Assembly (NCBI GenBank): GCA_963676635.1
Contig: OY781105.1
Location: 4,173,138 to 4,237,137 of the forward strand
DNA length: 64,000 nucleotides
Reading direction: 5' to 3'
DNA from: Bacteroidales bacterium
Lineage (GTDB): Bacteria; Bacteroidota; Bacteroidia; Bacteroidales; F082
Numbering within the stretch: the stretch's first letter is position 1; each line of letters starts with the position of its first letter. The notes beneath the pieces were generated by a model. The model did no database searches and was not told where the DNA came from. It saw only the letters and a program-made list of their open reading frames with translations. The position numbers and the translations under genes are program-made. Shown here in pieces: positions 43,884 through 60,890 of the stretch.

Positions 43884-43965
43884 AAATGGCGAGCAGAGTT
43901 GAGGGGTTTATCTCACTGCAGCTAATGTACTTTACATTCAATCTTTTTCATTTAATCTACGTTCA
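43884..43965 (-). repeat. Degenerate, inverted copy of the left part of the hairpin element
   Basis: The reverse complement reads gtagattaaatgaaaaagattgaatgtaaagtac...gtgagataaacccctc. Copies 3 and 5 read gtgtagattgattgc.a.agattgaatgtaaggtacgagagctaaaatgagataaaccc. Confidence 0.55.
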
Positions 43966-44102
43966 GCGATGGTTTTTCTTAAATTATTCGCAACGCATAA
44001 CCCACAAAAACAGGCCAGGCTTTCAGCCTTAAGCGGTTTTAATAGTTACTTCTTTCAGAAGGTTACGGGATTTCCTATCTCTACCTGATCCTTGGGAGAT
44101 CT

Positions 44103-44218
44103 CCCACTGAGCGTAGTTTCATCCGCCTTGGCGTAAGACATGTGTACCTACGTTCGCCTATCAAAAAAAAACAATGAGAGCAGTTATTATTCAGAATTAT
44201 ATTTATAGTATTTGTGGA
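44103..44218 (+). repeat. Structured hairpin element, copy 1
   Basis: cccactGAGCGTAGTTtcatccgccttggcgtaagacatgtgtACCTACGTTCgcctatcaaaaaaaaacaatgagagcagttattattcagaat...tatttgtgg. Confidence 0.8.
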
Positions 44219-44500
44219 GGCCTATGCCCTGACTGAACGGTTTTGAATAAAAATCTTACTGAAAACAGAACCGGAACTCCCAATATATTAACTAAAATAA
44301 TCAGGCAATATAATCCGGCGCTGCATAACCTACCTTCTTTCCTTTTATAAATCAATCTAAAAGTATTTAAAACCCATGGATTCGTGTCTGGATTCGTTCA
44401 ACACGGTCTTCAAACCTGGTACTGGGTGCTTTTAGAAGACTTATTTATTAGGCACAGGTTGTTTTTGTTATTTCTATTTATCTTATATTACAAGCTATTA

Positions 44501-46804
44501 TTATCTTATAACAAGTTTCTTAGTTTTCATTAATATTTCATTCTCTGAAATAGTTACGTAGTAAATCCCTGGTAATACTTTTGATCCATTACTAGTTAAA
44601 TCCCATATTGTACGAATAATGCCGGATTCAACTTTGCCAGATAATATCGTAGCAACTCTTTGACCGTTTTGGTTATATATTTCAATATTTAATCTATTCG
44701 AGCCTGAGGTTTTTACTTCAATATCAACTGAAATGGATGCGGGATTTGGAGAAAGCAATAGTACCTCTTCTTCTGTATCTGATACAATTTCAGGAATATC
44801 TACTGTAGGGTTCCACTCATAAGCACCCATATCAATGGTTTCTCCATAAATACGAGGGTTACCGGCAAGGTCTGTTTCAGGTAACTGTATCCAATCTGGT
44901 ATTATTTCAAGTGATCCTGCATCAATACAAGGCGAATTATTAGCCAGGTTATAAGGAAAATCAGGCCCTGCATAAAACAAAGGATCCGTGTCAATATTTG
45001 ACTCTCCATAAAACACATTATTTTGACCATAGAGAAGGTTTATATTATCCTCTCCACCATCAAACAAAGAATTTTCTACATAAAAATTGGACTCACCTGT
45101 ATAATCAGGAGTAAACATATATGCAGATCTATATTGGTTATTAAACACAATAGAGTTATACAATTTATGTGTTGAACCATACGTAATACTAAGTGCTGCG
45201 GCCTGAGAATTATTGGAAGTGTTATCGGCAAATGTACAATTAATAGCATTTGAATTTAAAACACCATATGTACCTAAACCGATTGAGCCTGCTCCATTTC
45301 CTATATCTTTTGTATAATTATCCACAAATAAACAGTTTATTACTACGCACTCATCCAGGTAGGGGTCATTTATCCCACTACTAATCGACAACCCTCCACC
45401 AATATGATACTCATCGTTACCTACTGCATTGTTTCTAATAAATCTGCAATTTGTAACGTATGTTGTATCTTGATAGCCAAGGAAAAAATCTCCATGTGAA
45501 ACAGCTAAAGCTCTACCATAATTATCAATAAAATCACAATTATCAATTCTGAAATTATTTGAACCTACAACTTCACCATTTGCCAATCTTTTTCCAGTAT
45601 TGGAGGTGAATAAAATGTTAGTTAAAGAAGCGTTTATATTTTTCTCTATCATTAGGCTACCCATACCATAGGGTGCATTTTTATCTCCATTACCGTTTGT
45701 AAGAGTGATATTGCTGATATTATAATTGTTAGCAAAATATATGCCTGAAAGATGATATATCTCATCTTCGGCATCAAGAATAGTTCCATCTCTTGATTCA
45801 CCTCTAATAGACACATCCCTCTTTAGGCTTAATGGAAATTTTTCTCCGTTTGTGAAAGAATAGATACCATCGGCAAGTATAATAGTATCCGGGCTAATAC
45901 TATCACTTTTCATCCTTAAAAGTGCACTCCAAATATTTTTAAGCGGGTCATCAGGTGTAAGTCCGCTGTTATTGTTATCCCCATTGTTTGAAACATAAAT
46001 ATTTTCTGTTGTCTGGTCAAGTTTTCCGTTTAGTATTTCCCAAGAAAGTGTATTACCAGGTATTAGTGTATCATAAGCTTTTGAAAAAAGATGATAATAA
46101 TCAGGGGCAATAACCGTAAAAGTATCAACAACAACATGAGTATAAATATATGGAGGCGCTGTAGCATAATAAATATCTGTCCCGATAGCTGCAACGTTGT
46201 TATAAATATTACATAAGTTTATTGTATCGAATAAACAAGTACTCCCAAGCAACCTCATTCCACCGCCACTGCGATATGCTGAATTGTCCCTGATTGTTGT
46301 GTTTGAAATGAAAATATTTGCAGATCTGGCATTTATACCACCACCGCTACCTGAAACAAAATTTTCTTCAATGACACAATTTAAAATATCCAAATCTGCT
46401 TCTTCCACATAAATACCACCACCATTTATTGCACCAGATAGTGATCCTGTTCCATTTCTCAGTACGAATCCGTTAACCACAATTTTTGAAAGACTATTAT
46501 ATATATTAATACATCCTCCCGCTTGATTGCCATCAATAATTGTTTGATGAATATATTCAAGGTTGCCAGTTGTTAAAGTAAGGCTGCCAAGTGCAATATT
46601 TTTTTCAATTATCTCAAGGTTCTCGAAATAAGTACCCGGATACACAAGTACTGTATCGCCATTCTCAGATGCATCGATTGCATGTTGAATTATGGTAAAA
46701 TCACCGGTCCCGTCTTGTTTTACCGTTAGTATGCTTGAAAACCCATCTATAGATAATAGAATTATGAATACCAGAAGTAAATAACAACGTCCTATCTCAT
46801 TCAT
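44501..46804 (-). CDS. Right-handed parallel beta-helix (choice-of-anchor-Q-like) protein with T9SS type A sorting domain
   Basis: 767 aa. N-terminus LTVKQDGTGDFTIIQHAIDASENGDTVLVYPGTYFENL, repeated N..A...GGG beta-helix rungs, and C-terminus LSPNPASISVDIEV...GIYYVTISE...KKLVIR. Confidence 0.75.
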   Translation of the reverse strand: MNEIGRCYLLLVFIILLSIDGFSSILTVKQDGTGDFTIIQHAIDASENGDTVLVYPGTYFENLEIIEKNIALGSLTLTTGNLEYIHQTIIDGNQAGGCINIYNSLSKIVVNGFVLRNGTGSLSGAINGGGIYVEEADLDILNCVIEENFVSGSGGGINARSANIFISNTTIRDNSAYRSGGGMRLLGSTCLFDTINLCNIYNNVAAIGTDIYYATAPPYIYTHVVVDTFTVIAPDYYHLFSKAYDTLIPGNTLSWEILNGKLDQTTENIYVSNNGDNNNSGLTPDDPLKNIWSALLRMKSDSISPDTIILADGIYSFTNGEKFPLSLKRDVSIRGESRDGTILDAEDEIYHLSGIYFANNYNISNITLTNGNGDKNAPYGMGSLMIEKNINASLTNILFTSNTGKRLANGEVVGSNNFRIDNCDFIDNYGRALAVSHGDFFLGYQDTTYVTNCRFIRNNAVGNDEYHIGGGLSISSGINDPYLDECVVINCLFVDNYTKDIGNGAGSIGLGTYGVLNSNAINCTFADNTSNNSQAAALSITYGSTHKLYNSIVFNNQYRSAYMFTPDYTGESNFYVENSLFDGGEDNINLLYGQNNVFYGESNIDTDPLFYAGPDFPYNLANNSPCIDAGSLEIIPDWIQLPETDLAGNPRIYGETIDMGAYEWNPTVDIPEIVSDTEEEVLLLSPNPASISVDIEVKTSGSNRLNIEIYNQNGQRVATILSGKVESGIIRTIWDLTSNGSKVLPGIYYVTISENEILMKTKKLVIR

Positions 46805-46869
46805 TGTATTAGTTTTATAGTAAATCCCCGGAATATGTTAGAATGACACAAACCGGCGACAAAATCAGT

Positions 46870-49800
46870 TTATTGAATTATTAGTTTTTTGTTTACAGTA
46901 TTATTATTTATTGCAAGTTTTACAATATAAACCCCTTTATTAATTTTTTTGCCACACACTGAAAGACCCCAGGTGAAGGATTTTAGGCCTGTAGTTTGTT
47001 GGCAGTTAAACAATGTTGCCAGAAATCTTCCGGTTCCATCGTATACGGTTATATTTACATTTGCATTGTTCTCAACGCTATATTTAATATTAACACTATT
47101 ACCAGCCGGGTTAGGGTAAATACTAAAATCCAATTCACTGTTATAATCGGGTTCAGTATTGCTCTCATTTCTGAATGAAACTTTGTAAATACTACTATTT
47201 TCAGCAGGATGAATGGATCTTGTTTCGTATATTCCCTTATTCCTGTTATAAACATCGTATTTGCGAATTATCTTCTTCTGAGAGGACTTCGCACTTGTCC
47301 ATGTTTGGAATGTAATACAATCACCTGTTAGTCCATCGGTATAGGCTTTTATCCCAACAAGGGTATCATCAGATGAAACTATGCAGGCTCCTACGCAAGA
47401 ATCACCAATAAATGCACCAATCTCATCAATTGTTTCTGTTGTGTCGAGTAATACAACAATTGGGTCATAGTCAGCAGTTTCAGAATACACAAAGTTCTGT
47501 GTAATTTCTTCTTCTATTTCAGCATTTCTTGTGCCATACTGTACCCAGCTAAATGTATAACTTTCAGGGAGCAGGTCGGTATTAATAACTATCATATCAC
47601 CATAGTCGATATTATGTACAAGGTTATCACATATCCACCCCGTATTAGCGGGCACAGGATTCCCGGGATTGCGTGCAGGACCATCATAAAAACAAAACCA
47701 GTCTTCTCCCTGTATGGAGTTTGTATACCAGAGTACTTCACCAAGTGCGTCCAGTACATCCTGTTCTTTATGAATAAAGTAGCCTACCCAGTTTGGCTTT
47801 CGCTCGAATAGTGGGATTTGAGTAGTAGTAGGTATTACATCACCATACATCTTAATGTATTTATTTTGAGACTCTGTTGTTCCAGGATATAGCAAATCTA
47901 ATTTATAGCCCCTTTCACTATAAATGCCACCTATTTCTGATGGCGTTGGCCATTCAGAACCATCAAAATTGCTGAAAAAATATTGATCATATCCTGGGGG
48001 TAAGTTAAGAAGCTTACTATCTTCTTGATAATCTTGAGGAACAATATTACCAGAAAGAACACTATTTATGGAGGGTGATGTTGGTGCACCTTGTTGGTAA
48101 AGCCGTGGTATAGAAATCCAATCATATTCATTATTATTTAACAACAATAATTCTTTAGCTTCAAAATCAACTACACTAACCTTTGAATGAGCTCCGTTGG
48201 GTAAATAAATCTTATTTTGGTATGGATCTATGGTAGGAGTTGTAAGGTTGTAGTTGAAAAACTTAATAAGTTCATCAACATAGTGATCATATTCAACATA
48301 ATAGCTGGTTATTTGAGGTCCATTCCCCACAAATAAATCTATAGTCTCAAATGTGCTGCCTGTAACTGTAGGATCATATACCAGAAGTTTTGATGGCTCA
48401 TCACCCCATTTATCCTGATTAAATTTAGTGTGTACATAAATTTTACCGTTGTATGGATTGTTAAAAAAACTCGCAATTTGACCAGTATAACTACCAATTT
48501 CTGTAATATTAAAACCTGATGGAGATGTTTTATCAATCTGGTAAAATTTTGCAATTCTGTCATGAGTATATTCTCCTGTAGCAGGAGGGGTTTCTGTTTG
48601 ATCAGAAAATGCGAAAACTGAATTTGTATGTTGGTTATATACTATTTCATTAAAATGAATTTGAGAAGTAAAGGCAGCCGATTCTAATGTATTTGTTGCG
48701 CAATCATAATAGGATAAATTATTTGTATAAAAGTCGTTATTTGTAAGTATATACAATGCTCCTTCATAATCTTCAGGGGGCTCTAATAATTCAGGACATA
48801 TAACTTTTCCAGGATCCCTAAGGTTTGCCTCCAGTGTTGTAACCTCACCTGAGTTCGTAATTGATAACAAAAGACCAAATCCAAAAGATGCTGGTATCTC
48901 ACAAACATTTTCTTGAGATATGTATGGGTTTTGTAAAATATAATCATTTTTAACTGTAGCATATACTTTGTGATCATACTGGTTGTAGCAAAATGATGCA
49001 TTGAAATGGCAATCAAGAATGTTTTCAATGTTTGTTAGATCAGCAATTTCAGCTGAAGCATATTGATAATCTGATGCATTAAAAAACATAATACTAGGAT
49101 GGCTATTTGTAGTATTAGTAAATACGCATAGCAAACCATTCGGTGCAACAAACATTTGTTTAGTATAACTTATCCCACTTAATGGTATATCTGTTGGTTC
49201 GAAATTGTTGTCAGAATCTAGTCTGTATATCAAATTTGTGGTATTATCATTTGCTGATATAAGCAAATGATCCTGGAAGGGATTATAAACGATATCACCA
49301 ATTGGAAATTCAACATCAATGGTTGTTTCCAAAGCTCCTTCGCCACCATTTGCCAATGGATCATAAACATAAATTGTGGAGTTTGAATTTGAAATTGTAT
49401 TGTAGAAATAGATTAAATTATTTGTGGGATTATATACTGAATGGTATGCAGGGAAGCCAACTGGTTTGAAATCTGTGTGGTGAATACCGGTTTCATCCTG
49501 ATATGAATTGTATAAACCATTTAATGTATAAGATAAGGCACAGTTATAATCACTCAATACGGCTCCTGTACCAAAAAACGAACCTGGTTTTTCTATTATT
49601 GTTTCAAATTCATATACAGCAGGATCTGGTATTGTGTTATAAGTCACATGTGTCCAATCATTAATACTTCCTAAGTAAAAATCTCCATTGTTGCCCGGAA
49701 CTAGTTTTAAAGGATAATTGTAATAAGGAGAATTCCTATCTTCAGAATAACTATTTGTGTTTAAGTTTAAATCCGTATCGAGGGAAAAACCAGATGAATT

Positions 49801-51009
49801 ATATGTATAAAACGCAAGATTCATATCTTCAACATTCGAATCGTTAAAATATATATCCCCACTTGACTTATGATTAGCAAAGGTTAAAACTAAATGATCC
49901 TCTTGAGGTATAAATAGACCGTCTATTATACGCCTACTTGGAGCAGTAAGAGATTGATGGGTCATCATTGTGCTACCTGCATCAAAAATGTAAAATTTTA
50001 CTGTATATGTAAATGGGTTAGGCTCAGTTCCTGATCCGGGCAGCATATATGGTAGCACTACTATCTTATGCAAACCTGCATTTTTGATAGTAAACATTTT
50101 ACCAATTTTAACTTCTTCGATGTGAGTTGAGTTAATTTCATTTGGGTTGGCCGGATCTGTTGTTAGTTCGTAAAGGTATATATCATCCCCTCTGGCAACG
50201 TAGAAGAGGTCGCTTCCTTCACTCCTGTAAGGCTCAATTTCATTTGCAGTTTTTAAATATCCATCGCCACCATTAGCAATATCAAATCCCCTTTTAAAAT
50301 CTTTGCATTTCAATGTTAAGCTACCATTAATCTCATTTATTTCGTAAATAGCAAAATATGAATCTGTTACAAGGAAGCTCCCCTCCTCATTAGCTATATT
50401 ATCCCTACCACTAAATAATGTGTAAAGCCTATTATTAAGTTCATCGTGCTTTATTATTACTCTACCACTGGATATATTGAAATGATCAATTTCTGCGGGT
50501 CGATCCTTAAGTTTAGTCACTTCGTATGGTGCATCTGTGTTGATACTGATTAGGTTCAAATCGGGTGTTAATGTATAGATAAGAGGGGTAGGGTCATCAC
50601 TTACAACCATCATCTGTCGCGATGGTGAATGGAAACCGTAATTGAAATAGGGAGGTGAATATTTCCCAAAACTCTTAAATGTATTATCTGAATTTGTTGT
50701 AAACTGCTTAGGTTTAAGGTCAATTGTAGTCACATGATACATTTGATTGGTGTAACTGTTTCGTTGGTAAACATATATTTCACTTTGTCCGTGGACAAAT
50801 ATTTTTCCATTTACCTCTACAAAGTCTGCACCAAAACCACCGGTCTCATCAGGCAGGGAAATGTTTTTATCAAATGATGAGTTTTGCGAAAACAATAAAC
50901 TGTGAAGAAAAAACATTATCAATGTTGGTACTACTATTTTTTTGATAGTAAATCTATGTACCAAGGGAATTTTATGGTTTACAAATTTGATACTATGATT
51001 AGTTTTCAT
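46870..51009 (-). CDS. Large secreted protein of unknown function (1379 aa) with T9SS type A sorting domain
   Basis: Signal-like N-terminus and a possible propeller-like repetitive body. C-terminus FSIYPNPAGNSVNIKYS...GVYIVKLAINNNTVNKKLIIQ. Confidence 0.75.
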   Translation of the reverse strand: MKTNHSIKFVNHKIPLVHRFTIKKIVVPTLIMFFLHSLLFSQNSSFDKNISLPDETGGFGADFVEVNGKIFVHGQSEIYVYQRNSYTNQMYHVTTIDLKPKQFTTNSDNTFKSFGKYSPPYFNYGFHSPSRQMMVVSDDPTPLIYTLTPDLNLISINTDAPYEVTKLKDRPAEIDHFNISSGRVIIKHDELNNRLYTLFSGRDNIANEEGSFLVTDSYFAIYEINEINGSLTLKCKDFKRGFDIANGGDGYLKTANEIEPYRSEGSDLFYVARGDDIYLYELTTDPANPNEINSTHIEEVKIGKMFTIKNAGLHKIVVLPYMLPGSGTEPNPFTYTVKFYIFDAGSTMMTHQSLTAPSRRIIDGLFIPQEDHLVLTFANHKSSGDIYFNDSNVEDMNLAFYTYNSSGFSLDTDLNLNTNSYSEDRNSPYYNYPLKLVPGNNGDFYLGSINDWTHVTYNTIPDPAVYEFETIIEKPGSFFGTGAVLSDYNCALSYTLNGLYNSYQDETGIHHTDFKPVGFPAYHSVYNPTNNLIYFYNTISNSNSTIYVYDPLANGGEGALETTIDVEFPIGDIVYNPFQDHLLISANDNTTNLIYRLDSDNNFEPTDIPLSGISYTKQMFVAPNGLLCVFTNTTNSHPSIMFFNASDYQYASAEIADLTNIENILDCHFNASFCYNQYDHKVYATVKNDYILQNPYISQENVCEIPASFGFGLLLSITNSGEVTTLEANLRDPGKVICPELLEPPEDYEGALYILTNNDFYTNNLSYYDCATNTLESAAFTSQIHFNEIVYNQHTNSVFAFSDQTETPPATGEYTHDRIAKFYQIDKTSPSGFNITEIGSYTGQIASFFNNPYNGKIYVHTKFNQDKWGDEPSKLLVYDPTVTGSTFETIDLFVGNGPQITSYYVEYDHYVDELIKFFNYNLTTPTIDPYQNKIYLPNGAHSKVSVVDFEAKELLLLNNNEYDWISIPRLYQQGAPTSPSINSVLSGNIVPQDYQEDSKLLNLPPGYDQYFFSNFDGSEWPTPSEIGGIYSERGYKLDLLYPGTTESQNKYIKMYGDVIPTTTQIPLFERKPNWVGYFIHKEQDVLDALGEVLWYTNSIQGEDWFCFYDGPARNPGNPVPANTGWICDNLVHNIDYGDMIVINTDLLPESYTFSWVQYGTRNAEIEEEITQNFVYSETADYDPIVVLLDTTETIDEIGAFIGDSCVGACIVSSDDTLVGIKAYTDGLTGDCITFQTWTSAKSSQKKIIRKYDVYNRNKGIYETRSIHPAENSSIYKVSFRNESNTEPDYNSELDFSIYPNPAGNSVNIKYSVENNANVNITVYDGTGRFLATLFNCQQTTGLKSFTWGLSVCGKKINKGVYIVKLAINNNTVNKKLIIQ

Positions 51010-51290: not shown

Positions 51291-51364
51291 TTCATTTGCT
51301 CATTTACACCTGAGATATAATGGTTAGCGGCACAGCTTTCATTAGTATTTTCATACGTATGAAA

Positions 51365-51538
51365 CTGGATTGTGATAGCTGTCAAATGTGTAATGATTAA
51401 TGGATGAACCACACACTGAGCGTAGTTTCATCCGCCTTGGCGGAAGACATGTGCAACTACGTTCGCCTATCAAAAAAACAATAAGAACAGTTACTAGCAG
51501 AATAATTTTTACAATATTTGGGGGTAGTTGCAAACTAC
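51365..51538 (+). repeat. Structured hairpin element, copy 2
   Basis: Outer stem 51418-51427 / 51455-51464 with one G-T wobble, and inner hairpin tccgccttggcgga at 51431-51444. The tail is gcctatcaaaaaaacaataagaacagttac...acaatatttgggg, followed by a second mini-palindrome, gtagttgcaaactac (51524-51538). Confidence 0.8.
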
Positions 51539-51941
51539 ATATATAGGGGGATTAGGTAGCGATAATAAACCCATCATAAATAGCACGAGTCCCCTAACTC
51601 GTATTTTGCAAAGATGTTAGTATTTATAACTGAATTGGTAGTCCCTTCGTTCCCTTAAGTCTCTCCAGTCCTATTTATAGTCCTTGTTATAGCACGAGTG
51701 GGGGGCTTGAGCAATTGTGGGAAATCTAATTGCGTTTGTTCGCTTTCAATATACTTCCTGACTTCCTCAAACATATATTCTTTCTTACTCATTTTTTTTT
51801 CTGACAAGAGTAAATGTTTTTTTTTGTAGTCGGTTGGATACAGTTATTCGGACGAATACGGACAAACATGTTCAATTAATTTGGTTTTCCAGTATAGAGC
51901 ACATTACACAAACTACTACAAGTTACAATTTTGTGTTTAAT

Positions 51942-53174
51942 CTAGAATCTTGAGTGAATTGTATCTAAACTCGTTTGTATGGTATTTGTTTCAGCTTTAG
52001 GGACACCTGATAATTCAGCATACATTTTCCAATTATCGACAATACGCTCGATCTCATCTATTGTATCTTTCGCTTTATTAACAGATAAAACATCTGCTAA
52101 CTCCAGTAACTCTTTCCTTCCCGGATCAACGTAGTTACCAGCGCAAGCTGTACTATGATATCCTTGAGAAGATGAAGAGAATGTCAAGTCATATGCTGGT
52201 GCAAGAGACCACGTTCCTTCAGAATCCATAAGAAACGCAAAGTTTTTAGAATGATCATCACGGTTATGGGCTAAGACGTTAAAAACAGCTCTGCGAAACA
52301 TTTGATGAGCTGCCTGTGCGTTATTTGTTAGCTTCTTTGCTTGATATATTAGATTACCATAATCAAGGGTGCTATGCTCATAGTCATCGTGAAGTAGCCC
52401 TGCAACTGAGAGCATATGCAACTTGTTATTCCCAACACGATCAAATCGCTTGGTTCCAAAATATTTATTCCCAGTTTCACTTTTAAACACCCTACACTCG
52501 GACATTTCAATCCCTGAATCTAAGGCCATTTTATAAAAGGCTAGTTCAATATTAGCTATGTCTTTCAAATCTACATCTGTTGCAAATTTAATAATCCAAT
52601 GTTCATATCCTTCCGGAAGATTAGTGATGCCACTAATGAGTGAATCAGTTTTCGAATTATATCCGGCATAAATTTTTGGACGAGCTCCACCAGGACTTCC
52701 ACCTCTTCCAAACATCTGATCAATTACGACACTACTCTCTCCTTTAATTATTTTAGAAATATTGTTATTTAGTACATCCAGATTAATTTCTATTGCCTCC
52801 TGCTCTAATTCAACACCCGGTTTGTACTGTAGAGCTCCCATACTATTCTTCCCCGCAAGTGTTAAATGATCCAGGGCATTTAGAGATTCAATAGCAATTC
52901 GGTTGGCACTTAGCTGTTTTCTGATTAGTAAATATCCCCAAGCATCCGGTAAAGAGTCAGCAAACACGCCAAAAAGGCCATTGAATGGGTTTTTATTAGC
53001 CGTTTGTGGGTTATCATCAAACATTAACATATTAGGTGATAGATTTGTCCCTGATTTTAAATAATCATCACTATATTTAAAAAGGATATCCCGACCATCA
53101 AGAATTAACTGGCCAACAAGTTTATCTTCAGAAAAATGTATATACACATTGAGTTTAGTTGTCGCCATAATCAA
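51942..53174 (-). CDS. hipA: Type II toxin HipA-family serine/threonine kinase
   Basis: 410 aa with GGSPGGARPK and the NRDDHSKNFAF catalytic-loop motif. It overlaps the upstream HTH gene by 4 bp. Confidence 0.85.
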   Translation of the reverse strand: MIMATTKLNVYIHFSEDKLVGQLILDGRDILFKYSDDYLKSGTNLSPNMLMFDDNPQTANKNPFNGLFGVFADSLPDAWGYLLIRKQLSANRIAIESLNALDHLTLAGKNSMGALQYKPGVELEQEAIEINLDVLNNNISKIIKGESSVVIDQMFGRGGSPGGARPKIYAGYNSKTDSLISGITNLPEGYEHWIIKFATDVDLKDIANIELAFYKMALDSGIEMSECRVFKSETGNKYFGTKRFDRVGNNKLHMLSVAGLLHDDYEHSTLDYGNLIYQAKKLTNNAQAAHQMFRRAVFNVLAHNRDDHSKNFAFLMDSEGTWSLAPAYDLTFSSSSQGYHSTACAGNYVDPGRKELLELADVLSVNKAKDTIDEIERIVDNWKMYAELSGVPKAETNTIQTSLDTIHSRF

Positions 53175-53446
53175 TAATTAAATAAATCTTTTTTCCGTTT
53201 CAGATCATCAATAAGTAAAATAGATTCGAAATCATTCAAGCGATTAAGAGCTTCGCTTATTTTTAAAAGTGATTCAAGAGAAATAATACCTGTTGATTCA
53301 AATTTACGAACAGTAGCGTAAGCTACTCCAGATCTCTCCGACAATTCCCTCTGAGACATCTTCTTCTGTTTCCTTAAGGCAATGATTTTTTTTGATAAAA
53401 GAATCATTATTTCTTTAGGTGAATTTTGATCTCCGTACATTCCCAT
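53171..53446 (-). CDS. hipB: XRE-family HTH antitoxin (HipB-like)
   Basis: 91 aa with LRKQKKMSQRELSERSGVAYATVRKFE (HTH_XRE), translationally coupled to hipA. Confidence 0.75.
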   Translation of the reverse strand: MGMYGDQNSPKEIMILLSKKIIALRKQKKMSQRELSERSGVAYATVRKFESTGIISLESLLKISEALNRLNDFESILLIDDLKRKKDLFNY

Positions 53447-53496
53447 GTCTGCATTTATTTTTACAACACAAAGATAGAAAATTTACTACCCTAAAT

Positions 53497-53551
53497 GCTA
53501 CTATAGTGGCAAAATATTCTATAATAAATGGAAATATGTTACTATAATAGC
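53497..53551 (-). promoter_or_regulatory. Two GYTACTATARTRGC imperfect palindromes upstream of hipB (candidate operators), plus a TATCTTTG -7 box at 53469-53476
   Basis: gctactatagtggc (53497-53510) and gttactataatagc (53538-53551), 41 bp apart. The minus-strand TATCTTTG lies ~20 nt before the ATG. Confidence 0.35.
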
Positions 53552-53773
53552 AATTTTGAGGAGGTATCCTAATTATTAATAGGAGAATGTCTAAACAAAT
53601 CCAACAGGAAAGACAAAGATGTCTCCTTGATCCAATCTGATACATATTCAAGCCGAAAAGAGGTTGATTTATGATAATTACATTATCACTTCTTCGACAA
53701 TTTTCATACTGTTTTCTAGATAAATTCAACTTTAAAATTCACTACACCTAGTGGGGAGACCTCCTCCATCTGG

Positions 53774-54019
53774 GTGTAGATTGATTGCAATAGATTGAAT
53801 GTAAGGTACGAGAGCTAAAATGAGATAAACCCACTGAGCGTAGTTTCATCCGCCTAGGCGGCGGACAGGTGCAACTGCGCTCGCCTATCAAAAAAACAAT
53901 TAGAACAGTTATTATGCAGAATTGTGTTTACGATATTTGGGGGAATTTCAAATTAGACCCGGAGGGGGGATAGTCATTCAATAAAACAATCAACCCCCTT
54001 AATAAGTGCATTGAAAACT
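53774..54019 (+). repeat. Structured hairpin element, copy 3 (full length)
   Basis: Left arm gtgtagattgattgcaatagattgaatgtaaggtacgagagctaaaatgagataaaccc. Hairpin 53836-53882 with one T-G wobble. Tail ...cattcaataaaacaatcaacccccttaataagtgcattgaaaac. The right end coincides with the hsdM truncation point. Confidence 0.8.
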
Positions 54020-54589
54020 GTGATGTAGCTCAACATGGACTCCTGCTTTTTTTTCCGAACCTGAGGCAAACTGACCAATCAAATATTCATACGTATCTCC
54101 AAGGGTATCGGTGTCAGTGGAAAAATCAGCAATTCCTTCGGCAATTTTTTGAATGATGGTGCAAAGCTTTTTGTTTCGGTCGGTTGGTGTTTTTCCAAGT
54201 TTCTCAGAGTTTAAGTTAATTTCTGAAAACAAACCATGAAAGGAATTATCAAAGGATTCGGTTTCGATGTATTTATAACTCTCCACCAAAGTTTCCAGCA
54301 ATTCGCAGTCCTGGGTACTGGCAAGCTCGGCGATGTTGTTCCACAAGAATTCCGGTTTGATTACATAATGTACCTTTCGGCGCATTTGTTTCTCAAATTC
54401 AACAACATCATCCGGTTAATCTCCACCTAATTCCTTCTTGGCCGATTCCTCATAATTGGCAGATAAACACCTTAAAAAAAGAAACGAAAGCATATAATCA
54501 CGGAAACCATCAGCATTCATTGCCCCACGAAGCTGGTCTGCTATTGCCCAAAGGGTTTTACTTAATTTATGTTGTTCTATTTGTGTCAT
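53999..54589 (-). pseudogene. hsdM: Type I restriction-modification methylase subunit HsdM, N-terminal fragment (frameshifted and 3'-truncated)
   Basis: MTQIEQHKLSKTLWAIADQLRGAMNADGFRDYMLSFLFL... (start 54589), a frameshift near 54390-54420, then ...LGDTYEYLIGQFASGSEKKAG followed by unrelated sequence from ~54040. No AdoMet-binding or catalytic NPPF region, and no hsdS or hsdR. Confidence 0.8.
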
Positions 54590-54611
54590 ACTGTATTCTT
54601 TTTTGTCTGAA

Positions 54612-55031
54612 TCAGGATTTTCCTGATTTAAGGATTTCCTGATTACTTTGTTTGGTGTATTTGGGGTTGTATATTTTTTTAAACTGTAAACTTTTGCCAC
54701 CAAAATTGATTAGCAAGCCAATAGGCTTATCGTAGGCCACAACATAGTTTTTAGCTTGCGTCAGGTGCACATCTTCTAAGTTGATGAGTGCTTTTAGTTC
54801 GACAATTACCAAATCTTCCACCACAAAATCAGCGCGTCTTGTGCCTACTTCAATATCTTCATAGTAAATGGCATGTTCTTGTTCTCTGGCAAAAGAAATA
54901 CCTGCATGCTCCAATTCAATAGCCAAACATCTCTGGTAAATGACTTCCTGAAATCCATTGCCCAGAGTATTATGCACTTTCATTGCACAACCATTTATTT
55001 TGTATGTCAGTTCATCTAAGGTCATAAACAA
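54612..55031 (-). CDS. GxxExxY family protein (PD-(D/E)xK-like), copy 1
   Basis: 139 aa with the family-typical pattern LTYKINGCAMKVHNTLGNGFQEVIYQRCLAIEL...ADFVVEDLVIVELKA. Confidence 0.8.
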   Translation of the reverse strand: MFMTLDELTYKINGCAMKVHNTLGNGFQEVIYQRCLAIELEHAGISFAREQEHAIYYEDIEVGTRRADFVVEDLVIVELKALINLEDVHLTQAKNYVVAYDKPIGLLINFGGKSLQFKKIYNPKYTKQSNQEILKSGKS

Positions 55032-55142
55032 TTATTTTTTTCCATCCTGTTAATATAAAATCTTGTACATCTTACTATCCTGTACACTATTATTTTTTCA
55101 AATCCTGTTCATCCTGTCATCCTGTATTCTTTTTTGTCTGAA

Positions 55143-55562
55143 TCAGGATTTTCCTGATTTAAGGATTTCCTGATTACTTTGTTTGGTGTATTTGGGGTTG
55201 TATATTTTTTTAAACTGTAAACTTTTGCCACCAAAATTGATTAGCAAGCCAATAGGCTTATCGTAGGCCACAACATAGTTTTTAGCTTGCGTCAGGTGCA
55301 CATCTTCTAAGTTGATGAGTGCTTTTAGTTCGACAATTACCAAATCTTCCACCACAAAATCAGCGCGTCTTGTGCCTACTTCAATATCTTCATAGTAAAT
55401 GGCATGTTCTTGTTCTCTGGCAAAAGAAATACCTGCATGCTCCAATTCAATAGCCAAACATCTCTGGTAAATGACTTCCTGAAATCCATTGCCCAGGGTA
55501 TTATGTACTTTCATTGCACAACCATTTATTTTGTATGTCAGTTCATCTAAGGTCATAAACAA
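55143..55562 (-). CDS. GxxExxY family protein, copy 2 (identical protein)
   Basis: The translation is identical to copy 1. Confidence 0.8.
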   Translation of the reverse strand: MFMTLDELTYKINGCAMKVHNTLGNGFQEVIYQRCLAIELEHAGISFAREQEHAIYYEDIEVGTRRADFVVEDLVIVELKALINLEDVHLTQAKNYVVAYDKPIGLLINFGGKSLQFKKIYNPKYTKQSNQEILKSGKS

Positions 55563-55687
55563 TTATTTTTTTCCATCCTGTTAATATAAAATCTTGTACA
55601 TCTTACTATCCTGTACACTATTATTTTTTCAAATCCTGTTCATCTTGTCATCCTGTAAATCCTGATTCAGACAATTTTTTCATTAAC

Positions 55688-55840
55688 CCCCACTGAGCGT
55701 AGTTTCATCCGCCGTGGAGGCGGATACGTGCAACTACGCTCGCCTATCAGAATAGTTATTATGCAGAATTTTATTTACAGTATTTGGATGTAGTTTCATT
55801 CAATAAAACAAGCAAATCCCTTAATAAGTGCATAGAATAC
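55688..55840 (+). repeat. Structured hairpin element, copy 4 (left arm missing, A-run shortened)
   Basis: Perfect outer stem 55695-55704 / 55732-55741 and inner hairpin tccgcc-gtgga-ggcgga at 55708-55724. The tail ...tttcattcaataaaacaagcaaatcccttaataagtgcatagaatac matches copy 3. Confidence 0.8.
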
Positions 55841-55896
55841 GGGGACGCTGGGTTTTGCAAACCGCTCAGATTACTATTTATTGTGCACTGGCTTTT

Positions 55897-56382
55897 TTAC
55901 CAATTCAACTTTCCTTTCTTCCAAAATATGAATGCCATAATATTCATTAACACACATAATCCAATGATTACGAAACCAAGCTGTTTTTGAAATCCGTTTC
56001 TAACAAAGTATGCTTGTTCTTCCTTGTCTATAAATTGTATATACCTATTTAGTCCACTATTTTTAGTGTCTGATGTTTCGTAATAGTATACATCAATTTT
56101 GTCACCAACATTTAAGTCGTCTATCCTTTTATCTGTTGGTTCACTATTTGGTTCATAGATTTCAAAAAGATAAGGATAAGTGTCTACTTTTAAATATCTA
56201 TAATCACCTTTATTTCGAATTGGAAAATTTTGAAATTTCTTTTCTAAATACTCAATTGTTCCGGTTGATTTGTCATATTCTGATTTCTCTTTGGAATTAT
56301 TTACAATCACAAATATTCCAAGTCCAAGTACTATAATTGAAGTAAAAATTACTCCACGAACACTTATTATTATTGGTATCAT
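55897..56382 (-). CDS. Hypothetical membrane protein (two predicted TM helices flanking a soluble domain; DUF3592-like topology)
   Basis: 161 aa with an N-terminal TM (VIFTSIIVLGLGIFVIV) and a C-terminal TM (LGFVIIGLCVLMNIMAFIFW). No catalytic motif was recognised. Confidence 0.5.
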   Translation of the reverse strand: MIPIIISVRGVIFTSIIVLGLGIFVIVNNSKEKSEYDKSTGTIEYLEKKFQNFPIRNKGDYRYLKVDTYPYLFEIYEPNSEPTDKRIDDLNVGDKIDVYYYETSDTKNSGLNRYIQFIDKEEQAYFVRNGFQKQLGFVIIGLCVLMNIMAFIFWKKGKLNW

Positions 56383-56490
56383 ATTTCTCTTTTTCTAGCT
56401 TTTGCACAACGGTTTGGCAATTCGTAGTGCGGGATTTATAGGTGCTTTACTTTTTTTTTACTACAAAATTTATATACTTTGATAATCTCT

Positions 56491-57534
56491 CTATTTATCA
56501 ATATCACCTGCATTACGTAAAGCTATTGTTAGCATTTGTTTTAATTCTTTTGATGTTGGAACTTTTCCTTTGAGTTTCTCTGGTATTCTATGTGTCAATT
56601 TATATTCTGATACTCCAATTGGTTTATTACTGGTTCTCAAAGCGTATTCGACTTCAAGGTTATCTTTTACAGGACACAAGATTATTCCGATTGAGGGATT
56701 GTCATCAACTTGCTTTTCCTGTTCGTCAAGAAGTTCGAGGTAGAAATTCATTTTGCCGGCAAATTCAGGTTCAAATTCAACCGTTTTTAATTCAATGGCA
56801 ATTAAGCATTTCAATATACGGTGATAGAATAACAAATCAATAAAATACTCCTTTTGATTAAGCTTTAATCTATATTGATTTCCAATAAGACTAAATCCGT
56901 AACCGAGTTCTAAAAGCAGGTCTCTTATATTTTCAATAAGTTTATTTTCTAATTCTTTTTCTAAAACAGGTTTTGTAATTCCGAGAGAATCAAGATTGTA
57001 TTCACTCTTTAGGGCTTCGTTAGCTTGTTATGAAAGATGTACAGGAAGAGCTTTATCAAAATTGCTTGTTTTTTCGTTTGTCAACTGATGTTGATAAGCA
57101 ATTGCTTTAATCTGATTAAGTAACACTGCTCTACTCCAGCCTAATTGGTCGGTTGCTTGTAAATAATACTTCCGTTCTTTATTGTCTTTCAGTTGTTGAA
57201 TAATAAGCATATTCTGTCCCCATGGAATTTTCATTGCCCTCTCTAAAAGTTCAGGCTCATTTTTATATTCCAGATAAAACTGTCTCATTCTCCATAAATT
57301 CTGAGGTGAATATCCTTTAGCTCCATCCATTTGTTTATTTATGTCTTTCGACAAAGTGTTAACAATAGATTGTCACCACTTATTCTTATCCTGATTTTCT
57401 ACGATTATTCTGCCAATTTCAAAATTATGTCCTATATGATACTTATTCAAAGACTTGAAAGCTTGGTATCTTGCTGAGTTAATCGTGTCGATTATTTCAC
57501 TAAAAAAATTGTTGTATGCTGATAATTTATTCAT
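56491..57534 (-). pseudogene. DUF1016 / YhcG-like PD-(D/E)xK nuclease gene, disrupted by a stop and frameshifts
   Basis: There are three in-order fragments. They are MNKLSAYNNFFSEIIDTINSARYQAFKSLNKYHIGHNFEIGRIIVENQDKNKW* (57534 downward), the 57354-57028 fragment (..PQNLWRMRQFYLEY..GWSRAVLLNQI..) and the 56835-56491 fragment (..LIAIELKTVEFEPEFAGKMNFYLELLDE..). Confidence 0.75.
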
Positions 57535-57551
57535 GTTCAAATTTATTCAAA

Positions 57552-57609
57552 ATCTCTCACAATTGTGATAGAGATTTAAAATTCAATTCTCTCACAGCTG
57601 CGATAGAAT
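57552..57609. promoter_or_regulatory. Two 24-bp direct repeats, each an internal palindrome (TCACAATTGTGA / TCACAGCTGCGA)
   Basis: atctctcacaattgtgatagagat (57552-57575) and attctctcacagctgcgatagaat (57586-57609). They lie 20-75 bp upstream of the yhcG-like start and adjacent to the IS110 left side. Confidence 0.4.
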
Positions 57610-57649
57610 TGGGATCTAGCCTTTTTAAATAAATGCTAATGGTCACTTG

Positions 57650-57830
57650 TAAGTTGTCGTTGCGGATTTCGGAGCTCGTTCCTGTCCGGCAGTACGGAAC
57701 GATGTTGCGAGAATCCAGTGTACGACACACCACTGACCCCGTAATGCAATTTACAATTTTTTAGCGTTTCGTGCTTTATTTTTTCAGTCAATGCGGTGGG
57801 TAAAGCAGGCTCTTATACAGGTTTTGGTTG
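57650..57830 (+). ncRNA. Candidate IS110 bridge (guide) RNA in the 5' non-coding end
   Basis: A locally GC-rich patch in AT-rich surroundings has nested pairings: gtcgt...acgac, ggatt...aatcc and cgttcc-tgtccggcagta-ggaacg. Further downstream are ggtggg...cccacc and ggatt-aa-aatcc. The position matches where IS110-group elements encode their bridge RNA. Confidence 0.3.
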
Positions 57831-58034
57831 AGTGTTGGCTTGTGCGACCTGTAAATGTGCCTGATTGTGCTTAGGATTAAAATCCCGGATATTTTTCCCA
57901 CCACTCATCATTTGTATTGAAAGAGTCTCCTTTAAACTTAACATATAGGCCGTATGTTTGTAAAATAATAAGCTTCTACACATTTTAGTTAATTTTATAG
58001 TGACAAACAATTAATAACTAAAATATAGAAGCTT

Positions 58035-59111
58035 ATGAATGCCAAAGTTAACAAAATTAGTTTTGCCGGAACAAACATTTATATTGGAATAGATGTTCAT
58101 TTAAAGAGTTGGAAAGTAACAATTATGGTTGATAATATTACTTATAAATCATTTTCAATGGATCCTGATGTTCAGATATTAGTTAAACATCTTGAACAAA
58201 ACTTTCCTGAAGGTAATTATTTCTCAGCATACGAGGCAGGGTTTAGCGGATTCCATTTACATAGGGAACTAATTCTCTGTGGTATAAACAATATAGTAGT
58301 AAACCCAGCAGATATTCCAACAACTGATAAAGAAAACAGACAAAAGGAAGATAAACGAGACAGTAGAAAGATAGCTCGCTCATTACGAAATGGAGAACTC
58401 ATAGGTATCTATATTCCTGATCGTGAAATCGAAGAGTTGCGAGGATTGGTCAGATATAGAAAACGATTAGTTGAGGACATATCCAGACAAAAAATTAGAA
58501 TAAAATCTTTTTTACGTTATCATGGTATTAAGATACCCAACGAGCATAGGTCAGGATCACAGCACTGGTCGGCTAGATTTACAAATTGGTTGAATAACAT
58601 AGAAATGAGTACTGCTTATGGTTCTGAAGTTATTTCATATTCTGTTAAAACTGTAAGTTTTTTACGCAAACAGTTATTGGATGTAAACAAGTTGTTGAAA
58701 GAGGTAGCACAACAAGAACCCTATGCAAATCAGATGTCTCTTCTGCGAAGTATACCAGGAGTAGGTCTTGTAGTTGCATTTACACTTTTAACAGAAATTG
58801 TAGATATAAACAGGTTTAAAAATCTTGATAGATTATGTTCTTTTGTGGGATTAATTCCAACAACAAACTCAAGTGGAGAAAGAGAAAAAACTGGCAACAT
58901 AACATACAGAAGCAACCAATCATTACGAGGAGTTTTGTTTGAAAGCGCATGGATAGCAATTAGGTATGATCCTGTATTGGCAAGTACATACCATAAGTTG
59001 TGTAAGAGAATGAACGGTAACAAAGCCATAGTAAAAATAACAAAGAAACTGCTTAGTAGAATACGATTCGTTTTAAAGAATCAACAAGAATATAAAGTGC
59101 TTATGAATTAA
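58035..59111 (+). CDS. IS110-family transposase (DEDD RuvC-like N-terminal domain plus Transposase_20 C-terminal domain)
   Basis: 358 aa with YIGIDVHLKSW..., ...SAYEAGFSGF..., and LRSIPGVGLVVAFTLLTEI..F.....LCSFVGLIPT..SSGE, typical of the IS110 family. Confidence 0.9.
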   Translation: MNAKVNKISFAGTNIYIGIDVHLKSWKVTIMVDNITYKSFSMDPDVQILVKHLEQNFPEGNYFSAYEAGFSGFHLHRELILCGINNIVVNPADIPTTDKENRQKEDKRDSRKIARSLRNGELIGIYIPDREIEELRGLVRYRKRLVEDISRQKIRIKSFLRYHGIKIPNEHRSGSQHWSARFTNWLNNIEMSTAYGSEVISYSVKTVSFLRKQLLDVNKLLKEVAQQEPYANQMSLLRSIPGVGLVVAFTLLTEIVDINRFKNLDRLCSFVGLIPTTNSSGEREKTGNITYRSNQSLRGVLFESAWIAIRYDPVLASTYHKLCKRMNGNKAIVKITKKLLSRIRFVLKNQQEYKVLMN

Positions 59112-59288
59112 TAAAAATCATCAATAATGACTTATCAGTTAAAAGACAGTTACCCAAACCTTGCGATATCAATTGATATTCGTTTCCTTTAGGCTGCTGC
59201 TTTTATCAATAAATCTCTAAACAAGGCAATGCGGTGCTATTTATCAAGAAAGTATCCGTTTATAGAAGTGTGTTTTTATTGATGTTGG

Positions 59289-60383
59289 TTACTGATAAAA
59301 AAGAAAATTATGTGAAAAAAATGTGTGAAAGTTTGGAATACAACATAGAAGGTCTTGGGCTATTTGATTTACAATTTCATTGGCTTTGAGATTTCTTATC
59401 CATTGTTCTGGAATTTTGTCAATACCGTTAATCAGTCCAAGGATATTGCCAGTTATTGAACCTGTGCTATCACTGTCTCCGCTGTGATTCACTGAAAAAC
59501 GGATTCCATTTTTAAAATCTCTTTCAAAAATCAGACTTGCGTACAATGAAATTGACAAAGCTTCTTCTGCAATCCATCCTTGACCTAATTCTTCAATTGT
59601 TTCGGCACTTATTTTATCGCTTTGTGATTTAGTTTTTTCGAATAAAATAATTGCCGCGTTTACTGCATTTTTAGTTTCTGAATTATTGTCCCAATTTTCG
59701 AGAATTTGGATTGCATTGTCAATTGATTTACGGAGTTCAATGCCAATTGCTAAATCAGAAATTATTGAAGCAAAGAAACCTGCACTTAAATATCCCGTTG
59801 GATGTCCATGCGTAATTGCGGAAAGTTCACAGGCAACTTTAAAAGCATTTTCATTTTCTCCCTCGAACATTAATCCGACCGGAGCAATTCTCATAATAGT
59901 TCCACAACCTTTGCTATCGTTTATTGGATTTTCAATTGTTCCGGCAATGCCACTACTCAAAGCAGAAATACAGGTATTCCCAGGAGCACGTCTGTTATAC
60001 AATACTTTCTCTTTTATAAGCCATCCTTTCTCCACGTCGTATTTTCCATCCTTAATGTTGTCAATGTTTACACCAATATTTTGAGTATGCAACCAACGTA
60101 AATAAGAATGATGGGCAATTGCATTCAGTGCACCTCCAATTCCTTTCAGCATTGCCCGATGATAAGCACGTAGCAGGGCTTCCGCGGTAAATAGTGTCAT
60201 TTGGGTGTCATCTGTAAATTCTCCGGTATTGTTCTCAAATTCTACAAAGTCTAATATTCCATTTTTTCCAAATTTTGCTTTTATTTGAGATAGACTGAGA
60301 AATTCAATTGGTGCGCCTAAAGCATCTCCAACAGCACCACCAATTAAACAACCGATGTAGTGCGAAAAATCTATTTTTTCCAT
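59289..60383 (-). CDS. ADP-ribosylglycohydrolase family protein
   Basis: 364 aa with the binuclear-metal ARH fold motifs GGAVGDALGAPIEF, ...TDDTQMTLF... and ...GDSDSTGSITGNILG. The last ~20 aa look atypical, so the 3' end is possibly remodelled next to the IS110. Confidence 0.8.
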   Translation of the reverse strand: MEKIDFSHYIGCLIGGAVGDALGAPIEFLSLSQIKAKFGKNGILDFVEFENNTGEFTDDTQMTLFTAEALLRAYHRAMLKGIGGALNAIAHHSYLRWLHTQNIGVNIDNIKDGKYDVEKGWLIKEKVLYNRRAPGNTCISALSSGIAGTIENPINDSKGCGTIMRIAPVGLMFEGENENAFKVACELSAITHGHPTGYLSAGFFASIISDLAIGIELRKSIDNAIQILENWDNNSETKNAVNAAIILFEKTKSQSDKISAETIEELGQGWIAEEALSISLYASLIFERDFKNGIRFSVNHSGDSDSTGSITGNILGLINGIDKIPEQWIRNLKANEIVNQIAQDLLCCIPNFHTFFSHNFLFYQ

Positions 60384-60433
60384 GCCTATTGTTTTAATTC
60401 AATTAATTCATCTTTTCGTTCAAGGATTGCGGC

Positions 60434-60616
60434 TTATGTTATTGAAACAATCTCCTCTATTTCAGGCCAGAATTTATTTATTGCATGATAAATTTCGTTA
60501 TCATCTTTTTCATTCATTTCTTCCAAGTCAAACTTCCATTTTCGGTGAAAATGAACTAACCATTTATTACCAGATGGTGTTTTGCTTTTTGGAAGCGAAA
60601 TCAAGCTTTTATTCAA
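60434..60616 (-). CDS. Small hypothetical ORF upstream of the ARH gene (no ATG start; possibly 5'-truncated)
   Basis: 60-aa frame starting at TTG. The frame stays open upstream to a stop at 60692-60694 without any ATG. It lies 50 bp upstream of the ARH start on the same strand. Confidence 0.25.
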   Translation of the reverse strand: MNKSLISLPKSKTPSGNKWLVHFHRKWKFDLEEMNEKDDNEIYHAINKFWPEIEEIVSIT

Positions 60617-60729
60617 TATTTGTTTTACAATATTATCATTCTCTGTCTGACTACCTTCTGCAATTACAGTCTTAAAATTAATAAATTTTGTCTAATCTTA
60701 GACTGTCTTATTTTTTGGGGATACTACAG

Positions 60730-60890
60730 GTGTAGATTGATTGCGAAAGATTGAATGTAAGGTACGAGAGCTAAAATGAGATAAACCCACTGAGCGTAGT
60801 TTGCAACTACGCTCGCCTATCAAAAAAACAATAATAACAGTTACTATGCAGAACTATATTTACAATATCTGGGTATAGTTGCAATCTGCA
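60730..60890 (+). repeat. Structured hairpin element, copy 5 (lacks the inner palindrome)
   Basis: The left arm is nearly identical to copy 3. A perfect 22-nt palindrome, gagcgtagttgcaactacgctc, lies at 60793-60814. The tail is gcctatcaaaaaaacaataataacagttactatgcagaac...tagttgcaatctgca. Confidence 0.8.

Follow-up and report, generated by a model that had tools for sequence, protein, structure and literature searches.

A mosaic, palindrome-centred repeat family in the non-coding DNA of a Bacteroidales accessory-gene island

Through analysis of a 64-kb stretch of a Bacteroidales genome (contig OY781105.1, positions 4,173,138 to 4,237,137; hereafter the window), a family of five related elements, named c1 to c5 and built around a GTAG-containing palindrome, has been identified and characterized. 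With a probability of roughly 55%, the element is a lineage-specific, non-coding mosaic interspersed repeat of the kind represented by repetitive extragenic palindromic (REP) sequences, bacterial interspersed mosaic elements (BIMEs), BOX elements and miniature inverted-repeat transposable elements (MITEs). This reading follows from (i) the modular make-up of the element; (ii) an independent palindromic unit nested within it; (iii) its inverted repeats; (iv) its location in non-coding DNA; (v) the decay of its copies; and (vi) its restriction to one lineage, with no copy in relatives. An earlier note on this DNA had offered a recombination site, a REP or MITE-like element and a small structured RNA gene as candidates, and the second is the best of the three. 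The family is real, old and decaying, and it is lodged in a decaying accessory-gene island of a Bacteroidota host bearing a type IX secretion system (T9SS).

The core of the element, about 100-145 nt long, is present in five copies with a pairwise identity of 80-90%, each on the + strand. A repeat finder placed them in one five-member family (D9/D14/D16) with starts at 44102, 51411, 53829, 55688 and 60761; the core of c5 itself starts at 60785. The five cores were made into an nhmmer profile, which, with all filters off, gave exactly five credible matches in the 64 kb (E 2e-26 to 5e-41), all on the + strand: 44103-44223 for c1 (E 6e-37), 51412-51532 for c2 (E 3e-39), 53830-53951 for c3 (E 5e-41), 55689-55798 for c4 (E 5e-33) and 60786-60883 for c5 (E 2e-26). 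No further core copy was found in the 64 kb by nhmmer, the other matches with E<1 being reverse-strand echoes of the palindromes. The five-copy hairpin family of the earlier note is thus confirmed; the start that it gave for the second copy, 51365, takes in only a very weak left-arm-like stretch, and the core starts at 51411.

The element is a mosaic of modules, some of them optional. The centre of the unit is the palindrome GAGC-GTAGTT-TGC-AACTAC-GCTC, with a stem of 10 + 10 nt (GAGCGTAGTT / AACTACGCTC); the decamer GAGCGTAGTT matches the window 11 times with at most one mismatch, against 1.7 expected. Palindrome 1 of c5 reads GAGCGTAGTT-TGC-AACTACGCTC, its loop being just TGC, and the loop of c1-c4 holds 24 extra nt that fold as a separate small hairpin (ATCCGCC..GGCGGA). 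This nested unit, (c)ATCCGCC-N2-6-GGCGGA(cac), with the flanks cat.../...aca common to the copies, is found in c2-c4 and in mutated form in c1. The pattern ATCCGMC-N2-6-GKCGGA has 8 matches in the window against 0.01 expected, and four stand-alone units that match it lie in both orientations inside longer local repeats (61120-61300 and 63250-63350): two on the + strand at 61242..61289 (starts 61242 and 61274) and two on the minus strand at 63268..63340 (starts 63268 and 63324; repeat family D17). Since the small hairpin also exists alone, the large palindrome carries a nested insertion of another palindromic unit; the palindrome without it is preserved as palindrome 1 of c5 and palindrome 2 of c2. 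In an ancestor of four of the five copies, the loop of the palindrome received the 24-nt hairpin as a separate, REP-like unit, and the spread came after the nesting, because the position of the insertion is identical in these four. Another small G+C-rich hairpin, aaCCGCCTGAGGCGGtcagg, occurs twice among the same local repeats.

Past the stem, the sequence continues with TCGCCTATC, which is invariant, then with an A7 run and finally with a conserved linker of about 50 nt; overall, the A-rich linker between palindromes 1 and 2 measures about 60 nt. Palindrome 2 is an inverted copy of palindrome 1; c2 has it intact, in c5 it can still be recognised, and in the other copies it has decayed or is missing. 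In c2 it reads GTAGTTGCAAACTAC (51524-51538), lies 60 nt past the stem, where the earlier note had recorded a second mini-palindrome, and is the exact reverse complement of GTAGTTTGCAACTAC of c5. Palindromes 1 and 2 together form a 19-nt inverted repeat with 84% complementarity in c5 and a 15-nt inverted repeat in c2. Two outer modules are optional, each shared by two copies as previously reported. The left arm of 63 nt is present in c3 and c5, where 53773-53846 and 60729-60802 (74 nt, of which the last 11 belong to the core; family D16) are 97% identical. The right tail of about 45 nt is present in c3 and c4 (53974-54023 and 55796-55845, about 50 nt, 86% identity). The minimum-free-energy fold of c3, and of c3 only, pairs the left arm with the right tail.

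The five copies combine these modules differently, and this anatomy and mosaicism are directly observed. The most decayed copy, c1 (44102..44225), consists of the core only, with a stem-loop at 44109-44155, a mutated nested hairpin and no palindrome 2. Copy c2 (51411..51555) comprises palindrome 1 (51418-51464) with its nested hairpin (51430-51444), the linker and the intact palindrome 2, and its similarity to c3 reaches 51555. The most complete copy, c3 (53773..54023), contains the left arm (53773-53835), palindrome 1 (53836-53882), the nested hairpin (53848-53865), the linker and the right tail, and its palindrome 2 (about 53944-53957) has decayed. Copy c4 (55688..55845) possesses a perfect 10-bp stem (55695-55741), the best nested hairpin of the family (55707-55724) and the right tail; 12 nt of its A-run and most of palindrome 2 are deleted. 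In c5 (60729..60894), the left arm (60729-60791) is followed by a short palindrome 1 (60792-60814), whose loop is 24 nt shorter because the nested unit is missing, and by the inverted palindrome copy (60876-60894). The co-orientation claimed earlier holds for all five cores on the + strand but not for the sixth piece, the degenerate copy of the earlier note, which is only an isolated left-arm module on the minus strand about 140 nt from c1 (43904..43960; E 3.5e-8 with a left-arm nhmmer profile), which is 80.7% identical to c3 and c5 over 57 nt. The sequence CTCAACTCTGCTCGCC after this piece may derive from the right half of the palindrome.

Between c3 and c5, 72 of 74 positions are identical over the left arm and palindrome start and 48 of 59 over the linker (Fisher P = 0.003), which indicates that the modules have separate histories. 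Copy-specific indels and module losses are distributed across the five cores, and the flanks of the copies are unrelated beyond the modules. All copies lie in non-coding DNA, between co-directional or convergent genes.

The lineage restriction is based on searches outside the window. Exact and degenerate pattern scans of a collection of genome contigs gave one chance match, inside a Polyangiaceae coding region; two pattern scans of metagenome contigs gave no matches, those of viral contigs chance matches only, and BLAST against plasmids and phages no family member. About 200 kb of fetched loci are free of any copy, including about 130 kb from relatives with the same T9SS gene pair that stands beside c1. 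These relatives (L005-L014) keep the pair, the close ones at 75-80% nucleotide identity, and homology stops at the gene ends; the element is absent on either side of the pair in the close relatives and also in the more distant ones. Intergenic DNA cannot be aligned at this identity, so that an empty site could not be defined.

Several known systems resemble the element in part. Like the BIMEs of enterobacteria, which are mosaics of REP units, and the BOX elements of Streptococcus pneumoniae (boxA-boxB-boxC), it is short, non-coding and intergenic, with modules that re-assort and are sometimes lost, palindromic units in both orientations, conserved linkers between them and partly complementary outer modules; each copy carries its own subset of modules, as in these repeats. 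The element differs from both in that it has no sequence similarity to them, resides in a T9SS-bearing member of the Bacteroidota, is known here from five copies within 17 kb and hosts a second palindromic unit nested in its central palindrome. REPs inserted inside other palindromes have been described in Anabaena variabilis, Thermomicrobium roseum and Halothiobacillus neapolitanus, and GTAG-tagged REPs and terminal inverted repeat (TIR) families have been linked to the RAYT/TIRYT tyrosine (HUH/Y1) transposases (Di Nocera et al. 2013, PMC3733652). Common features are the GTAG in the palindrome, small palindromes inside larger ones, self-complementary inverted repeats and copies between co-directional or convergent genes. 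Unlike the tetranucleotide tag of REPs (GTAG or CGTC), which stands at one end of an imperfect palindrome, the GTAG of the element lies inside a perfect stem and is thus present on both strands. Further differences are a unit of 100-250 nt instead of 20-40 nt (the short form in c5 has 23 nt) and the lack of a RAYT/TIRYT gene, and hence of a REPtron, in the window. The motif GGGGWSAS has one match, GGGGAGAC, left of c3, which could be due to chance.

MITEs are characterized by TIRs of 15-30 bp at their true ends and by target-site duplications. The TIR of an IS3-like element in the window (TGACCCGTCCTGAATTTAGTTGACA) is unrelated to the element, and self-comparison of the window's IS110 region found no Pal-like repeat; a link to IS110 was also rejected on the ground that IS110 is not inserted in any copy. 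The IS200/IS605-derived elements named PATE possess subterminal hairpins at both ends on one strand, insert 3' of a fixed tetra- or pentanucleotide and have an orientation tied to replication. Two hairpins with identical stems are present in c2 and c5, and no conserved left-flank target is evident in the element (flanks TCT, CAC, AAA and AAC).

We infer that the family is mobile, and a hairpin-recognising HUH/Y1 enzyme is suggested for its spread. It would multiply as DNA, either mobilised in trans by an enzyme encoded elsewhere, for which a hairpin-recognising HUH/Y1 transposase of the RAYT or IS200/IS605 type would be the obvious candidate, or through duplication or gene conversion between copies. 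Copies would survive where insertions are tolerated, that is, in the non-coding DNA of the decaying accessory island, and any influence on adjacent genes, for instance as a hairpin within read-through transcripts or as a rearrangement substrate, would be secondary.

Several observations weigh against the assignment to interspersed repeats. The five copies all lie within 17 kb, and genome-wide dispersion, the hallmark of REPs and MITEs, is outside the reach of the window. No mobilising transposase was found in the window, and no Y1/HUH protein is present among its annotated open reading frames (ORFs). Reading of the flanks of the five copies revealed no target-site duplications, and sharply defined termini were not found, as the similarity of c2, c3 and c4 runs past the candidate inverted repeats. 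The 14-nt block CACTGAGCGTAGTT and the block TCGCCTATC show no variation in any copy, against 34% variable columns outside them (P ~0.003 and ~0.02 per block, uncorrected for the many windows that could have been chosen), which hints at sequence-specific constraint and not pure decay. Finally, the co-orientation of the cores with the minus-strand genes and their mild clustering would also fit an array-type system. If the interspersed-repeat reading is correct, the family represents one more lineage-specific mosaic palindromic repeat in a well-known class. It would be of use as a marker of the decaying accessory island, as a warning to annotators that the open frames of the element are not genes, and as a case of one palindromic unit nested in another in the Bacteroidota, where such repeats are little catalogued.

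An alternative of low probability is a cassette array of integron-like or rAID-like type in which the copies serve as recombination sites, with a site-specific recombinase encoded outside the window stacking unrelated accessory and defence modules in one orientation and the palindrome possibly acting as folded single-stranded DNA. In rAID-1 clusters, a conserved XerD-family recombinase precedes an array of orphan immunity genes whose intergenic sequences are repetitive. The element shares with integron attC sites and the Bacteroidales rAID-1 system (bioRxiv 10.1101/471110) the arrangement of co-oriented hairpin repeats between unrelated, one-way genes of accessory or defence type. The five cores are co-oriented with the minus-strand genes (P ~1/16) and part unrelated modules, namely the T9SS pair, hipBA, two GxxExxY genes with an hsdM fragment, and a Tri1-like ADP-ribosylhydrolase gene with others. 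Clustering of the copies relative to non-coding DNA is marginal (P ~0.04-0.07), and together with the co-orientation it makes an array-type system possible, as a minority reading. The left half-site is invariant, and the DNA upstream of the T9SS pair is variable in relatives: a tRNA about 700 nt upstream of the orthologous pair (L005, 2446-2570; L006, 3128) is abutted by a tyrosine integrase island in one assembly and by a TPR gene in the other, and two further relatives (L009 and L010) carry a reverse-transcriptase gene (RVT_1 domain) in this flank.

Other findings count against such an array. No ORF of at least 40 aa for a tyrosine or serine recombinase was found in 55.8-64 kb, and none among the larger annotated ORFs of the window. 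The attC R''/R' boxes (RYYYAAC / GTTRRRY) and R/L boxes are lacking; GTTTCAT, GTTTGCA and GTTGCAC, read from the sequence, do not fit GTTRRRY. In an attC site, the hairpin takes in the whole site and has extrahelical bases, an intI tyrosine recombinase gene is adjacent and the cassettes end at the site; in the element, the hairpin is a minor part of the repeat, 47 nt being palindromic out of at least 100 (100-250 nt). The putative cassettes are large (2-7 kb) and contain gene fragments, an IS element and conserved chromosomal genes, the T9SS pair being vertically conserved in relatives, and one piece of the family is inverted. The limits of the modules also lie off the repeats, as seen for the hipBA toxin-antitoxin module (51938-53506). 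Comparison with two other genomes gives this module sharp limits, one about 60 nt before hipB and the other at the stop codon of hipA, and it appears to be horizontally mobile: copies with 81-83% nucleotide identity occur in unrelated contexts (L017 and L018), and HipA homologues with 77-84% protein identity occur in several genera of Bacteroidota. These limits (53506 to 51938) are 265 and 380 nt from the nearest elements, which counts against the repeats as cassette borders, and the element is absent next to hipBA in L017 and L018. Only one possible immunity-type gene, that of the Tri1-like ADP-ribosylhydrolase, is present in the window, and the other genes are T9SS cargo, hipBA and fragments, although an array could extend past the 64 kb. 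A tRNA-type att site was rejected, as the window contains no tRNA or tmRNA.

In a bolder and still less probable version, the copies would be sites of an undescribed integron-like gene-capture system of T9SS-bearing Bacteroidota, whose recombinase, encoded beyond the window, would recognise the GTAG palindrome and stack defence, toxin-antitoxin and secreted-protein modules in one orientation; a confinement of the copies to recombinase-associated arrays would, if true, mean a new gene-capture system. PeSL cassettes of T4-type phages, said to have been described by Arbiol and co-workers in 2010, reportedly carry a promoter and stem-loop in repeats that flank shuffled gene modules and are co-oriented with transcription. 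A phage-origin remnant 2 kb from the element recalls this arrangement, from which the element differs by its lack of a promoter of the host consensus, TAnnTTTG, which nearby real promoters match. An invertible promoter segment was rejected, since a spacer of only 66-85 bp would not be long enough and every copy shows the same state.

It is similarly improbable that the palindromes are protein-binding sites, that is, operators of a dimeric protein or nucleoid-architectural sites comparable to the IHF-binding RIP/BIME, with two GTAGTT-N3-AACTAC sites about 100 bp apart bound cooperatively. A perfect 6-3-6 palindrome does occur twice in the family, its left half and flank (CACTGAGCGTAGTT) are invariant and TATCAA with the A-run adjoins the stem. 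The half-site GTAGTT is, moreover, the core of the 12 iterons (TAGTGTAGTTT) clustered at 62.7-63.15 kb, for which a phage origin-like region provides a match, although the iteron flank GTGTAGTT differs from GCGTAGTT of the element. Palindrome 2 is intact only in c2, one copy of five, and recognisable in c5. The half-sites of four copies are split by the 24-nt insertion, which would abolish the binding of a dimer, and no candidate regulator gene lies alongside.

No better placed is the proposal that the copies are passive remnants of local segmental duplication or rearrangement, an intergenic stretch copied together with neighbouring DNA and lacking mobility of its own. Local duplication is frequent in the window (a 15.25-kb repeat, a 531-bp tandem duplication and 101-nt tandem repeats), and both the confinement of the copies to 17 kb and the missing target duplications are consistent with such an origin. 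Yet the flanks do not resemble each other, the modules re-assort, the left arm occurs alone and inverted, and a divergence of 10-20% combined with a shared nested insertion points to several old copying events of about 100-250 bp each.

The remaining question concerns the strand and a possible RNA. The outer helix consists of 12 pairs, the 10-bp stem and two loop-proximal ones. Across the five aligned copies, 9 of the 12 are constant; two have a change on one side only, namely G-C to G-U in c1 and c2 and U-A to U-G in c3, and the last is broken in c1. These changes are as first described: a G.T at columns 10/52 in c1 and c2, a T.G at columns 13/49 in c3, and one true mismatch in c1 (columns 16/46), a transversion that mispairs on both strands. 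Thus three stem positions vary, and the two changes other than the transversion are transitions. After a transition in a Watson-Crick pair, one strand has G.T and the other has A.C, and either strand is equally likely to be the one with G.T. As c1 and c2 are the closest pair in the stem region (91%), their shared C-to-T probably represents one event, leaving two independent transitions. Two of two wobbles on the + strand then have P ~0.25, so that the strand-specific pairing signal is no better than chance, and the proposal that the + strand is the folded species is not upheld. Both strands fold almost equally well: with DNA parameters they differ by at most about 0.5 kcal/mol in c2-c5, and RNAalifold gives -15.75 (+) and -14.39 (minus) kcal/mol. 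The asymmetry of the element lies in sequence conservation, CACTGAGCGTAGTT and TCGCCTATC being invariant while a third of the other columns vary.

Four copies have a stable hairpin (z -2.3 to -5.7; -5.6 in c4), and the DNA fold of c1 is no better than shuffled on either strand (z +0.5 / -0.1). In the inner helix, c1 and c2 carry uncompensated mismatches and 79% of cells are paired. No pair has changed on both sides and no compensatory pair was found, the shuffling control being uninformative. RNAalifold revealed no conserved structure outside the one hairpin on either strand, and the fold of the full c3 element is only marginally better than shuffles (z -1.8 / -2.7). Rfam 15 gave no match at the gathering threshold, and the best scores at E up to 10 (15-25 bits, E >= 1.3) are unrelated. 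No sigma-70-type promoter or terminator common to the copies was called on either strand. The Bacteroidota -7 box TAnnTTTG is in no copy on either strand and is present just upstream of the nearby T9SS and hipB genes; a promoter reading of the element was rejected, its nearest candidate, TTTTTTTG on the minus strand, lacking the conserved A and being deleted in c4. In agreement with the earlier view that the element is not a terminator, no terminator-like site was called at any copy; after the stem, the + strand continues with GCCTATCAAAAAAA and the minus strand with AGTGGG. A terminator-like hairpin lies near c1 on the minus strand (44029-44012), and c1, placed between the stop of the T9SS operon and this hairpin, is probably transcribed as a 3' untranslated region (UTR).

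A structured RNA, whether a + strand (antisense) small RNA gene or a 5'/3' UTR element of the minus-strand mRNAs, is the least supported reading: the stable hairpin of four copies, the two wobble-compatible changes and the probable transcription of c1 are in its favour, but Rfam offers no match at any threshold, promoter, terminator and compensatory changes are lacking, structure is conserved only in one hairpin, and the wobbles favour the strand antisense to every neighbouring gene. A coding function, to which a + strand frame open through c3-c5 with the 24-nt and 12-nt indels in frame had pointed, was rejected in view of a frameshift in c2, a stop in c1, the absence of a common start codon and mostly non-synonymous substitutions. 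Spurious ORFs covering the element were sought with one concatenated query of six peptides, and none was found. A group II intron domain V was dismissed as well, since the resemblance (GAGC...GTTC) is accompanied by the wrong length and shape.

In the region of 44-61 kb, nearly all genes are located on the minus strand and the repeats lie between gene groups, among them the two T9SS cargo genes, hipBA and a 161-aa protein. The surroundings of the copies are rich in pseudogenes and gene fragments and include the IS110 element and the phage-origin remnant. An internal fragment of hsdM of a type I restriction system (53999-54385; model positions 84-200 of 515) has its broken 3' end about 20 nt from the right tail of c3. 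It is followed by a GxxExxY (PDDEXK_3) gene in a perfect 531-bp tandem duplication (54584-55414), with short repeats of the ACAGGAT type upstream, and by a probable yhcG/DUF1016-type pseudogene in three ORF fragments and three frames (56491-57540), which is suggested by reading of its peptides and has no match in NCBIfam. The IS110-family element (about 57560-59290; transposase 58035-59111, + strand) stands between this pseudogene and the ADP-ribosylhydrolase gene, and the 480-nt non-coding stretch upstream of its transposase gene could encode a bridge RNA. The ADP-ribosylglycohydrolase (59289-60383), preceded by a 60-aa ORF, has weak similarity to the Tri1 immunity hydrolase and DraG in NCBIfam (70.6 bits against a cut-off of 490 bits for Tri1) and could be an orphan immunity or antitoxin-type gene.

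The interval of 60.9-64 kb is non-coding and repeat-rich. Its iteron-like cluster of 12 copies (62690-63160; TTTAGTGTAGTTT / AAACTACACTAAA) is arranged as two arrays in opposite orientation, one on each side of an AT-rich spacer. Iterons with this motif and layout are also present in a phage contig of IMG/VR (L016, 6559-6848), flanked there by a packaging-side gene block on one side and a Prim-Pol gene on the other, and in a second locus (L015). No Prim-Pol ORF is left at the cluster of the window, which is probably what remains of the replication origin or early operator region of a phage or satellite.

Additional repeats were observed in the window. The octamers CCTTGTCA / GGTGACAAGG, tandem and scattered in non-coding DNA (27834-27940, 12615-12673, 25860-25918 and 61110-61230), adjoin PorP/SprF genes and are also found in the 61-kb junk region, and the 101-nt tandem repeats are located at 25955-26321. 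The segmental duplication of about 15.25 kb (12664-25449 and 27914-39154) varies in identity from 70% to 100% along its length, and the IS3-like element, with TIRs at 26349-26373 and 27810-27834, is situated between the duplicates. Each duplicate contains a PorP/SprF gene and encodes a giant protein (3359-3874 aa), whose internal repeats with a WDFGDG-like motif are, from the translation, candidate PKD-type domains.

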